DNA of 64,000 nt. It comes from Escherichia coli. GTDB taxonomy: Bacteria; Pseudomonadota; Gammaproteobacteria; Enterobacterales; Enterobacteriaceae. A program made the position numbers. The stretch lies in assembly GCF_013315695.1 (NCBI RefSeq), contig NZ_CP054353.1; one strand, written 5' to 3'. Position 1 is the first letter of the stretch; every line of letters starts with the position of its first letter. Of the stretch, positions 6,001-9,000 are shown piece after piece.

Positions 6001-9000
6001 TTTCTGACAGGATTTCGGTCAGACGGTTGGCATTATAGAGTTCATCGATATAAGCAATATAACCGTCGCGCTCTTCGGTAGTTTTGGCGTAGCAGATATC
6101 GTAAATACAAAAACTCAGACTTTTGGTCAGATTATTAAAGCCATGCAGTTTCAGTTTTTTCAATTTCTTATCTTCTCCTTAGGACGGCTGTGAGGCCAGT
6201 GCGTCTTGCAGATACTGAGGTAAGGCAAAAGCTGCCGTATGGATTGCCGGATTGTAATAACGGCATTTCAGGCCAGAGGCGAGAAAACGCGCCTGAATAA
6301 TTTCGGTTGAGAGATGGCGTAAGGCGTCGTTATCTGTCGCCCATGCAAAGGTCATGATGCCGCCGTAATAGGTCGGGATCGCCGCCTGATAAAAGCCAAC
6401 ATCGCTGAAGTAATGGCTGAGTTTGCGATGACTGTCGATGGCCTCTTCCTGCTGTAAAAAGCAGACGCCGTTTTGTGCGACGAAGATACCGCCAGGATTC
6501 AGGCAACGTTTGCAGCCTTCATAAAATGCTGAGGTGAACAGACTTTCGCCGGGACCGATAGGATCGGTGCAGTCGGAGATAATGACATCAAAGGTCTGGC
6601 TGGTTTGATTAACGAAATTGACGCCATCGTCGATCACCAGCTTAAAGCGCGGATCGTCGTAGCTACCGGCGTTATGGTTGGGCAGATACTGACGGCAGAA
6701 CGATACGACACCCGCATCGATTTCCACCATCGTGATTGACTCAACGTTTTTATGTCGGGTTACTTCACGCAGCATGGCACCGTCGCCGCCGCCGATAATC
6801 AGCACATGTTTCGCGTGACCGTGGGCCAGTAGCGGAACATGGGTCATCATCTCATGATAGATAAACTCGTCGCGCTCGGTGGTTTGTACTACGCCATCCA
6901 GCGCCATTACGCGACCAAATGCAGCGTTCTCAAAAATGATCAGATCCTGGTGATCGGTCTTTTCATGATACAGAACGTTATCTACCGCAAAGTACTGCCC
7001 AAACTGGTCGTGTAGCGTTTCATGCCACTGTTTTTTTTCGGCCATGGGTTGATACCTCCTTTGTTAATACCCGTAAAAAAAGGGCGCAACATAATAGCTA
7101 ACATTGACCGCGGATGCACGGTCAATATTTCTACAAAAAGGTATCAGGGATTATTTGACGTAGGCAAGCAGGCTTAAGGAATCGCGAGCCAGGGCTTTGC
7201 ACTTTTTAGCGACGGGAATGCCAATGCCGCTGAGATCGCGGTAGCTGTCTTCACCGAGGGCTTTCATGTCGAAGGTGTCGTAATTACTGAGATCCCACTG
7301 GTTTTGCTGGGCAAAAAAGACCAGTGCGCGACGAATTTGCCCGTTAGGTAAGTTCTGGTAACCACAATCGTTCTTCAGAAAAACAAAAACTGCCGTTAAA
7401 TCGGCCATATCTTCGGCTTCAGACTCGCTGAGCGCGTAACTGTTTGCGCAGACGGCCATCAGGCTGCCGAATAACACTGTTCTGAAAAACGTCTTCATTG
7501 CTTCTACCAGGGGCTTAAAGAAGATAAACGTTAGCACACTGCGAGCGAGGCGACGACCATTATTGTCGATTAAATTGTGTCTGCGGCTTGACCTTCCCGT
7601 AAGGGGAAGGACTATGCTCAACGTTTGATTTTGTTTCGCCTGCTTAAGAATAAGGAAATAACTATGCAACGTCGTGATTTCTTAAAATATTCCGTCGCGC
7701 TGGGTGTGGCTTCGGCTTTGCCGCTGTGGAGCCGCGCAGTATTTGCGGCAGAACGCCCAACGTTACCGATCCCTGATTTGCTCACGACCGATGCCCGTAA
7801 TCGCATTCAGTTAACTATTGGCGCAGGCCAGTCCACCTTTGGCGGGAAAACTGCAACTACCTGGGGCTATAACGGCAATCTGCTGGGGCCGGCGGTGAAA
7901 TTACAGCGCGGCAAAGCGGTAACGGTTGATATCTACAGCCAACTGACGGAAGAGACGACGTTGCACTGGCACGGGCTGGAAGTACCGGGTGAAGTGGACG
8001 GCGGCCCGCAGGGAATTATTCCGCCAGGTGGCAAGCGCTCGGTGACGTTGAACGTTGATCAACCTGCCGCTACCTGCTGGTTCCATCCGCATCAGCACGG
8101 CAAAACCGGGCGACAGGTGGCGATGGGGCTGGCTGGGCTGGTGGTAATTGAAGATGACGAGATCCTGAAATTAATGCTGCCAAAACAGTGGGGTATTGAT
8201 GATGTCCCGGTGATTGTTCAGGATAAAAAATTTAACGCTGACGGGCAGATTGATTATCAACTGGATGTGATGACCGCCGCTGTGGGTTGGTTTGGTGATA
8301 CGTTGCTGACCAACGGTGTAATCTACCCGCAACACGCTGCCCCGCGTGGCTGGCTGCGCCTGCGTTTGCTCAATGGCTGTAATGCCCGCTCGCTCAATTT
8401 CGCCACCAGCGACAATCGCCCGCTTTATGTGATTGCCAGCGACGGCGGTCTGCTACCTGAACCGGTGAAGGTGAACGAGCTGCCAGTGCTGATGGGCGAG
8501 CGTTTTGAAGTGCTGGTGGAGGTTAACGACAACAAACCCTTTGACCTGGTGACGCTGCCGGTCAGTCAGATGGGGATGGCGATTGCGCCGTTTGACAAGC
8601 CGCATCCGGTAATGCGGATTCAGCCGATTGCCATTAGTGCCTCTGGTACTTTGCCAGACACATTAAGTAGCCTGCCTGCGTTACCTTCGCTGGAAGGGCT
8701 GACGGTACGCAAGCTGCAACTCTCTATGGACCCGATGCTCGATATGATGGGTATGCAGATGCTGATGGAGAAATATGGCGATCAGGCGATGGCCGGGATG
8801 GATCACAGCCAGATGATGGGCCATATGGGGCACGGCAATATGAATCATATGAACCACGGCGGGAAGTTCGATTTCCACCATGCCAATAAAATCAACGGTC
8901 AGGCGTTTGATATGAATAAGCCGATGTTTGCGGCGGCGAAAGGGCAGTACGAACGTTGGGTTATCTCTGGCGTGGGCGACATGATGCTGCATCCGTTCCA

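Follow-up and report, generated by a model that had tools for sequence, protein, structure and literature searches.

Copper homeostasis in E. coli has textbook components, among them the gene cueO with its CueR operator, Tat signal and Met-rich insert, and dozens of crystal structures of the protein are available. Both cueO and its promoter, PcueO, have long been known and were characterised experimentally and structurally. The K-12 gene (yacK, b0123) is the closest described system for the locus reported here; the gene of its regulator, cueR, is located elsewhere on the E. coli chromosome.

Transcription of copA and cueO is activated by CueR, a Cu(I) sensor of the MerR family (PMC5329002; PMC8169799), whose core site is CCTTCC-N7-GGAAGG (PMC8169799). 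Bending and undertwisting of the 19-bp spacer by the CueR dimer allow sigma-70 to recognise both hexamers, and apo-CueR keeps the DNA in a repressed shape (PMC8169799; PMC5329002). For K-12, work cited in these papers reports a CueR footprinting or ChIP signal at the operator, and copper induction that disappears when cueR is deleted (cited in PMC5329002 and PMC8169799), and PcueO-lacZ serves as a CueR reporter (PMC9396075); a further paper gives no promoter details for cueO (PMC12589874). E. coli has one other promoter that CueR activates, PcopA; it has in common with PcueO the CCTTCC-N7-GGAAGG site, the 19-bp spacer and a dyad that overlaps the -35 element, whereas its central 7 bp and its -10 hexamer differ. 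PcopA has been solved together with CueR and RNA polymerase, and in this cryo-EM structure the CueR site overlaps the -35 element by 3 bp (PMC8169799). For PcueO itself, no solved structure is known.

One study names CueO as a Tat substrate and assigns Cu(I) oxidation to a single substrate site, Cu5, the Cu6 and Cu7 sites of the Met-rich helix being dispensable (PMC11494321). Where Cu(I) is strongly chelated, its recruitment is assisted by the Met-rich domain taken as a whole, and weak conservation of this domain among homologues has been noted as well (PMC11494321). Its variability from lineage to lineage is also on record in the literature. The Met-rich helix has been assigned to residues 357-369 and the sCu ligands have been named; loop residues 370-398 are disordered in most crystal structures (PMC6155172).

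Here we describe the cueO locus within a 64-kb stretch of E. coli DNA (the window; all coordinates refer to it, and PcopA is absent from it). With a probability of roughly 0.96, we read it as the chromosomal cueO locus of E. coli, with a CueR promoter of the MerR class, a Tat-exported cuprous oxidase and a Met-rich insert.

Gene identity and locus

Within 7300-9400, the list of open reading frames contains a 516-codon frame on the + strand that begins with the ATG at 7664 and runs to the end of the stop codon at 9214. This frame (7664..9214, 516 aa plus stop) is cueO and encodes a periplasmic multicopper cuprous oxidase, as matches to NCBIfam, Pfam, PDB and megablast records agree. Its product matches the CueO equivalog model NF008205 over the full length with 979.6 bits (cutoff 525) and carries three cupredoxin domains, PF07732, PF00394 and PF07731 (Cu-oxidase_3, Cu-oxidase and Cu-oxidase_2). 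The FtsP/SufI model scores the same product at 297.6, below its own cutoff of 581. The protein can be aligned over its entire length with crystallised K-12 CueO (PDB 5b7e, 1kv7 and about 40 more entries), from which it differs by five conservative substitutions, N92S, S190N, A219V, S272N and A329T, none of them within the Met-rich insert. The sequence-only reading had named the gene cueO, and the equivalog score, the three domains, the five substitutions relative to PDB 5b7e and the gene order all bear this name out; its description of the promoter and the Met-rich insert as known features is also right, both having been characterised already for E. coli cueO.

The gene order is speE-yacC-cueO-gcd, with speD, speE and yacC upstream on the - strand and gcd downstream on the - strand. 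The divergent upstream neighbour yacC (7151..7498, - strand) encodes a YacC pilotin-like protein of 115 aa (NCBIfam NF037975 equivalog, 196.8 bits), and yacC is divergent to cueO in 78/80 species loci of Enterobacteriaceae. Locus, synteny, protein length, Met-rich insert and copper ligands are the same as for K-12 cueO and PcueO. By megablast, the 1,811 bp from 7450 to 9260 were found in 5,424/5,426 complete E. coli genomes, and both cueO and yacC are annotated in every E. coli match. DNA identity over this interval is 100% in E. coli MS 21-1 and 95-99% in 5,423 records; relative to most strains, the DNA of the window differs by about 2% at the cueO locus, and identity of 99% or more is reached in only 5 records.

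A Shine-Dalgarno sequence, AAGGAA (7652..7657, + strand), lies 6 nt before the ATG. Between the convergent genes cueO and gcd, a GC-rich hairpin at 9234..9255 has a predicted fold of -21.6 kcal/mol (z = -4.5 versus shuffles) and may act as a bidirectional terminator. The terminator scan made no call at this hairpin. No Rfam family was found in 5000-12000 at gathering thresholds.

Signal peptide and copper ligands

The N-terminus of the protein reads MQRRDFLKY, and residues 1-28 (7664..7747, + strand) probably form a Tat signal peptide, as motif, conservation and literature indicate, with the twin arginine R3-R4 in QRRDFLK. A Tat signal with RRDFLK had been noted from the DNA. QRRDFLK is present, its RR is invariant in 81/81 CueO sequences, and crystallised mature chains begin at residue 29; however, the Pfam TAT_signal score of 20.9 bits falls slightly under the cutoff of 22.7. 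Moreover, the ligands of the type-1 copper (H443, C500, H505 and M510), the eight histidines of the trinuclear centre and the Cu5 ligands M355, D360, D439 and M441 are all invariant in 81/81 sequences.

Promoter and CueR operator

Upstream of cueO, on the + strand, a -35 hexamer TTGACC can be read at 7588..7593 and a -10 hexamer TATGCT at 7613..7618, separated by a spacer of 19 bp (7594..7612), which is 2 bp above the sigma-70 optimum. These are, base for base, the elements that had been proposed for this promoter. The dyad ccttcccgtaaggggaagg (= CCTTCCCGTAAGGGGAAGG) occupies 7592..7610, with 7-bp arms CCTTCCC and GGGAAGG around GTAAG; written as CCTTCC-cgtaagg-GGAAGG, it is the exact published core site of CueR. 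The sequence-only reading had placed the dyad inside the spacer, and the dyad is indeed present, but it begins two bases before the spacer, with the final CC of the -35 hexamer. Across the 64-kb window, CCTTCC-N7-GGAAGG has one match, with 0 mismatches, while a search allowing up to 1 mismatch would be expected to give 0.12 matches by chance. The exact core site together with the 19-bp spacer upholds the proposed promoter architecture of the CueR/MerR type.

A generic sigma-70 scanner run over 7100-9400 missed the cueO promoter, because it accepts only spacers of 16-18 bp. This miss is what the over-long spacer of a MerR-type promoter predicts, and it was not counted against the promoter. Transcription of cueO would start at about 7625, some 7 nt downstream of the -10 hexamer, as placed from the promoter elements.

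For the comparison between species, a scan with one genome per species gave 80 Enterobacteriaceae loci, or 81 sequences with the window. The species-level scan was chosen because the top 120 matches in the protein database were mostly Citrobacter clusters and too redundant for an analysis of diversity. In 80/81 Enterobacteriaceae sequences, the locus has the arrangement CTTGAC-N, exactly 19 bp and TA[T/A]GCT, with the dyad in register. The distance from this conserved block to the downstream ATG is 41-53 bp, and the intergenic DNA on either side of the block shows little conservation. The TTGAC core of the -35 element is found in 80/81 sequences with a near-invariant sixth base, the -10 hexamer is TA[T/A]GCT across genera, and the spacer is 19 bp in 80/80 of the promoters found among the 81 sequences. 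The exception is Intestinirhabdus alba, whose cueO has neither yacC nor a CueR box upstream; the promoter architecture is thus not universal.

Within the dyad, the pairs 1/19, 4/16 and 6/14 are complementary in 80/80 aligned promoters, and the pair 2/18 in 78/80. Position 3/17 is T/G in 57/80 promoters: outside Escherichia, most genera have GGAGGG in place of GGAAGG as the right half-site (57/80), and hence the dyad is imperfect at this position. In a few lineages, dyad positions 5 and 15 change together (CCTTGC...GCAGGG). Among E. coli genomes, the 61-bp promoter (7575-7635) is 100% identical in 5,039/5,424 records, compared with about 98% identity (about 2% divergence) for the locus overall, and the window carries the same 61 bp as a strain of the K-12 serotype (O16:H48).

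We also considered that the dyad might be incidental, the promoter being an ordinary weak sigma-70 promoter with copper control exerted by another regulator, or the dyad serving as an RNA hairpin. TATGCT and TTGACC are recognisable sigma-70 hexamers, and a transcript that started further upstream could in principle include the dyad and let it fold. However, the dyad is identical to the published CueR core site, its register relative to the -35 element is that described for copA, the 19-bp spacing is invariant in 80/80 promoters from many genera, and cueO is named in the literature as a direct CueR target (PMC5329002; PMC8169799; PMC9396075). Moreover, the dyad lies upstream of the probable transcription start and so would be outside the cueO mRNA; a hairpin or attenuator was rejected on the position of the dyad upstream of the -10 element. 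We therefore give next to no weight to an incidental dyad and read it as the CueR operator. Carried over from the K-12 literature, dependence on CueR and copper would be expected for the cueO promoter of the window as well.

Met-rich insert within E. coli

The Met/His-rich segment comprises the 46 residues 355-400 (8726-8863), of which 14 are Met and 5 are His; the other 470 residues of CueO contain 15 Met. The peptide given for it in the sequence-only reading was exact to the letter, and its span of about 8700-8870 is refined here to 8726-8863. The insert is identical to that of crystallised CueO. It can be divided into a conserved part, residues 355-375 (8726..8788, + strand), which according to the alignment and PMC6155172 holds the Met-rich helix and the Cu5 ligands M355 and D360, and a variable loop rich in Met, His, Gly and Asn, residues 376-402 (8789..8869, + strand), which is the only stretch of CueO with indels among 81 species.

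The insert had been described as commonly differing in length between strains, and an alignment of the Met-rich region across strains had been proposed. A 271-nt query across the insert matched 5,430/5,431 E. coli records at 95% identity or more and at least 80% coverage, and an 81-nt query over the variable loop matched 5,430 E. coli records, all at 95% identity or more. Among 119 evenly spaced match rows, from which the outlier row of strain L37 was left out, no net change in length was seen, the match length being equal to the query length; rare 3-nt indels are still compatible with these summaries. In strain L37 the insert deviates, but cueO is annotated there as a frameshifted pseudogene, and this single outlier was not accepted as a natural length variant. 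In addition, five further Escherichia loci, from E. albertii, E. whittamii, Escherichia sp. and two more genomes labelled E. coli (L003-L007), also have 46 residues. The insert length is thus constant among the sampled E. coli.

In line with this, TRF found no tandem repeats in window 8600-8950 at a minimum score of 30, nor in the loop DNA of the window at a minimum score of 24; the absence of a repeat array fits a stable insert length. A hypervariable, contingency-like site with frequent length differences among E. coli isolates is suggested at first sight by the extreme length variation of loop 376-402 between genera (7-54 aa) and by the in-frame tandem repeats that encode the loop in many genera. 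Against this stand the identity of at least 95% over the insert in all but one of the matching E. coli records and over the 81-nt core in all of them, the 119 rows free of net length change, where only rare 3-nt indels could escape the summaries, the 46 residues of the other Escherichia loci and the missing repeat array. Strain-level hypervariability is accordingly very improbable, and the claim of common variation between strains does not hold: the length of the insert is fixed within E. coli, and it varies between species and genera.

Insert length between species

In the MAFFT alignment of 81 CueO sequences, residues 1-354 contain no indel, and all length variation falls within residues 376-402 and one adjacent indel of one residue. 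Across species and genera, the counterpart of residues 355-400 in the alignment is 18-75 aa long, and loop 376-402 takes 27 distinct lengths between 7 aa (Trabulsiella) and 54 aa (Kosakonia) in the 81 species, whereas residues 355-375 are fixed in length in all species except for a deletion in Trabulsiella. The length-variable segment coincides with the loop that is disordered in the crystals. Three shorter CueO-like proteins of 470, 471 and 500 aa (P0008, P0011 and P0002) were discarded as length variants of the Met-rich segment, their insert being intact.

CueO or CuiD proteins of other Enterobacteriaceae (Citrobacter, Salmonella, Klebsiella and Kosakonia, among others) share with E. coli the three cupredoxin domains, the copper ligands, the RR signal and the conserved helix, and their loci share the divergent yacC and the 19-bp-spacer promoter, usually with GGAGGG as the right half-site. 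Their variable loop, in contrast, reaches up to 54 aa, whereas that of E. coli has 27 aa, and it is often made up of repeated MNHGx units. In 27 species the loop DNA contains in-frame tandem repeats (TRF score of at least 50) with periods of 15, 24, 30 and 45 nt, which encode M-N/D-H-G-x units. These repeats suggest that gain and loss of repeat units, probably by slippage, cause the changes in loop length. From this, one may picture the loop as a repeat-driven accordion, whose length would be set in each lineage by in-frame units of the M-x-H-G type, would stay fixed in E. coli and would be adaptively tuned to the chelation of Cu(I) in the niche. The pattern of loop lengths across lineages is shown by the alignment; the adaptive tuning may or may not apply, and the picture as a whole is tentative and, in our estimate, rather doubtful.

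Plasmid-borne copies and the cueO-gcd interval

A cueO gene flanked by two copies of ISVsa5 (IS10-like) in direct orientation is present on at least 10 genuine plasmids, 96-273 kb in size. These plasmids include IncHI1B and ~98-kb backbones and come from E. coli and E. fergusonii of pigs, pork and humans. In the three plasmids that were examined at the junction (L001, L083 and L084), the outside end of the IS adjoins the position equal to window 7615, and consequently the -35 hexamer, the CueR dyad and half of the -10 hexamer are replaced. The start of the transposase gene is proximal to this IS end, and so the outward promoter of IS10 would read into the plasmid cueO, to judge from the arrangement of the sequence. 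Our literature search found no paper that mentions cueO together with ISVsa5.

The CueO protein of the plasmids is identical to that of J53, a K-12 derivative. The plasmid copies also have a REP/BIME element of ~158 bp just after the cueO stop codon, which the cueO-gcd intergenic region of the window lacks; it is at this point that the alignment ends in about half of the sampled E. coli rows.

Discussion

The elements at this locus can be arranged in a scheme that follows the described system closely. The CueR dimer would bind CCTTCC-N7-GGAAGG, a dyad that extends across the over-long spacer of 19 bp. When CueR is bound by Cu(I), or by Ag or Au, it would kink and undertwist the spacer and realign both hexamers, and RNA polymerase would then be able to form the open complex at PcueO. 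The product would be exported in its folded state through the Tat pathway, its 28-residue signal being removed thereafter, and in the periplasm CueO would convert Cu(I) to the less toxic Cu(II). The electrons would travel by way of the type-1 copper and reduce O2 at the trinuclear centre. The Met-rich insert is positioned over the type-1 site; its conserved first part contributes two of the four Cu5 ligands, M355 and D360, and the flexible Met/His loop would serve as a low-specificity arm for the recruitment of Cu(I).

The present comparison corrects the belief that the length of the Met-rich insert varies between E. coli strains. It also delimits the one indel-tolerant segment of CueO, which is relevant for engineering work on CueO, be it as laccase or as biosensor promoter. 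Across Enterobacteriaceae, the operator with its 19-bp spacer is among the most conserved non-coding blocks at the cueO locus.

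Plasmid-borne cueO and its promoter

At least 10 true plasmids carry a composite transposon-like unit with the order ISVsa5 (IS10), cueO, BIME, gcd fragments and ISVsa5. On plasmid pE6474.2 this unit occupies 4685-10409 of the compared locus (L001) and matches window 7615-11040, and it is also found in plasmid loci L083 and L084. Among the plasmids examined, the backbones include a 98.5-kb plasmid with phage-type genes (SSB, lysozyme) as well as IncHI1B plasmids of 253 kb and 100 kb. The plasmid hosts, E. coli and E. fergusonii, were isolated from pigs, pork and humans. A literature search found no paper naming cueO together with ISVsa5.

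The left junction was the same in all three plasmids examined (L001, L083 and L084), where the outside end of IS10 adjoins window position 7615. Hence, plasmid cueO in these three lacks the -35 element (TTGACC, window 7588-7593) and the CueR operator (7592-7610), and its -10 element (TATGCT, 7613-7618) is without its first 2 nt. Transcription of plasmid cueO is probably driven by the outward promoter of IS10, and would then be independent of CueR.

Among 80 Enterobacteriaceae loci (one genome per species), Intestinirhabdus alba has cueO (L077 1-1503) preceded by unrelated, GC-rich DNA, and no yacC, CueR box or promoter with a 19-bp spacer was found in the 1.5 kb upstream of the gene.

Length variation beside and within cueO

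The gap between cueO and gcd in the window is just 46 bp (9215-9260) and contains a strong hairpin at 9234-9255. Plasmid copies encode the same CueO protein as the K-12 derivative J53 and have, directly after the equivalent of window 9257, a REP/BIME element of ~158 bp (L001 7643-7802) that the window lacks. Alignments of 10 of the 20 E. coli records in a 20-row spread end at window 9257. Thus, a real presence/absence length polymorphism lies beside cueO, not within it.

Within the gene, only one E. coli record, that of strain L37 (L002 1447-2979, NZ_CP034589.1), deviates in the Met-rich region, which is 3 nt shorter there and shows 85.6% identity over 114 nt. Its cueO is annotated as frameshifted with an internal stop, and may reflect an assembly-quality problem or a true pseudogene.

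In Kosakonia, Raoultella, Klebsiella, Yokenella and Citrobacter (L054, L078, L049, L040 and others), the DNA coding for the Met-rich loop is made up of clear in-frame tandem repeats, such as 2.9 copies of a 45-nt unit in K. quasisacchari and 3.5 copies of a 24-nt unit in K. arachidis, and MMNMDHGQ-type units of the loop are the product of these DNA repeats. In CueO of Trabulsiella odontotermitis (L082 1501-2967), only 18 aa align to residues 355-400, compared with 46 in E. coli, so that most of the Met-rich domain is absent, with the Cu5 ligands M355 and D360 kept. This protein is a natural equivalent of an engineered CueO in which residues 361-396 are deleted; the CueR box of its gene is degenerate, with 3 mismatches.

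The cueO allele of the window

Window 7450-9260 is 100% identical in strain MS 21-1, and identity of at least 99% was found in just 5 of 5,431 E. coli records, nearly all others showing ~97-98%. The cueO allele of the window is uncommon among sequenced E. coli, and the window therefore derives from a less-sampled lineage.
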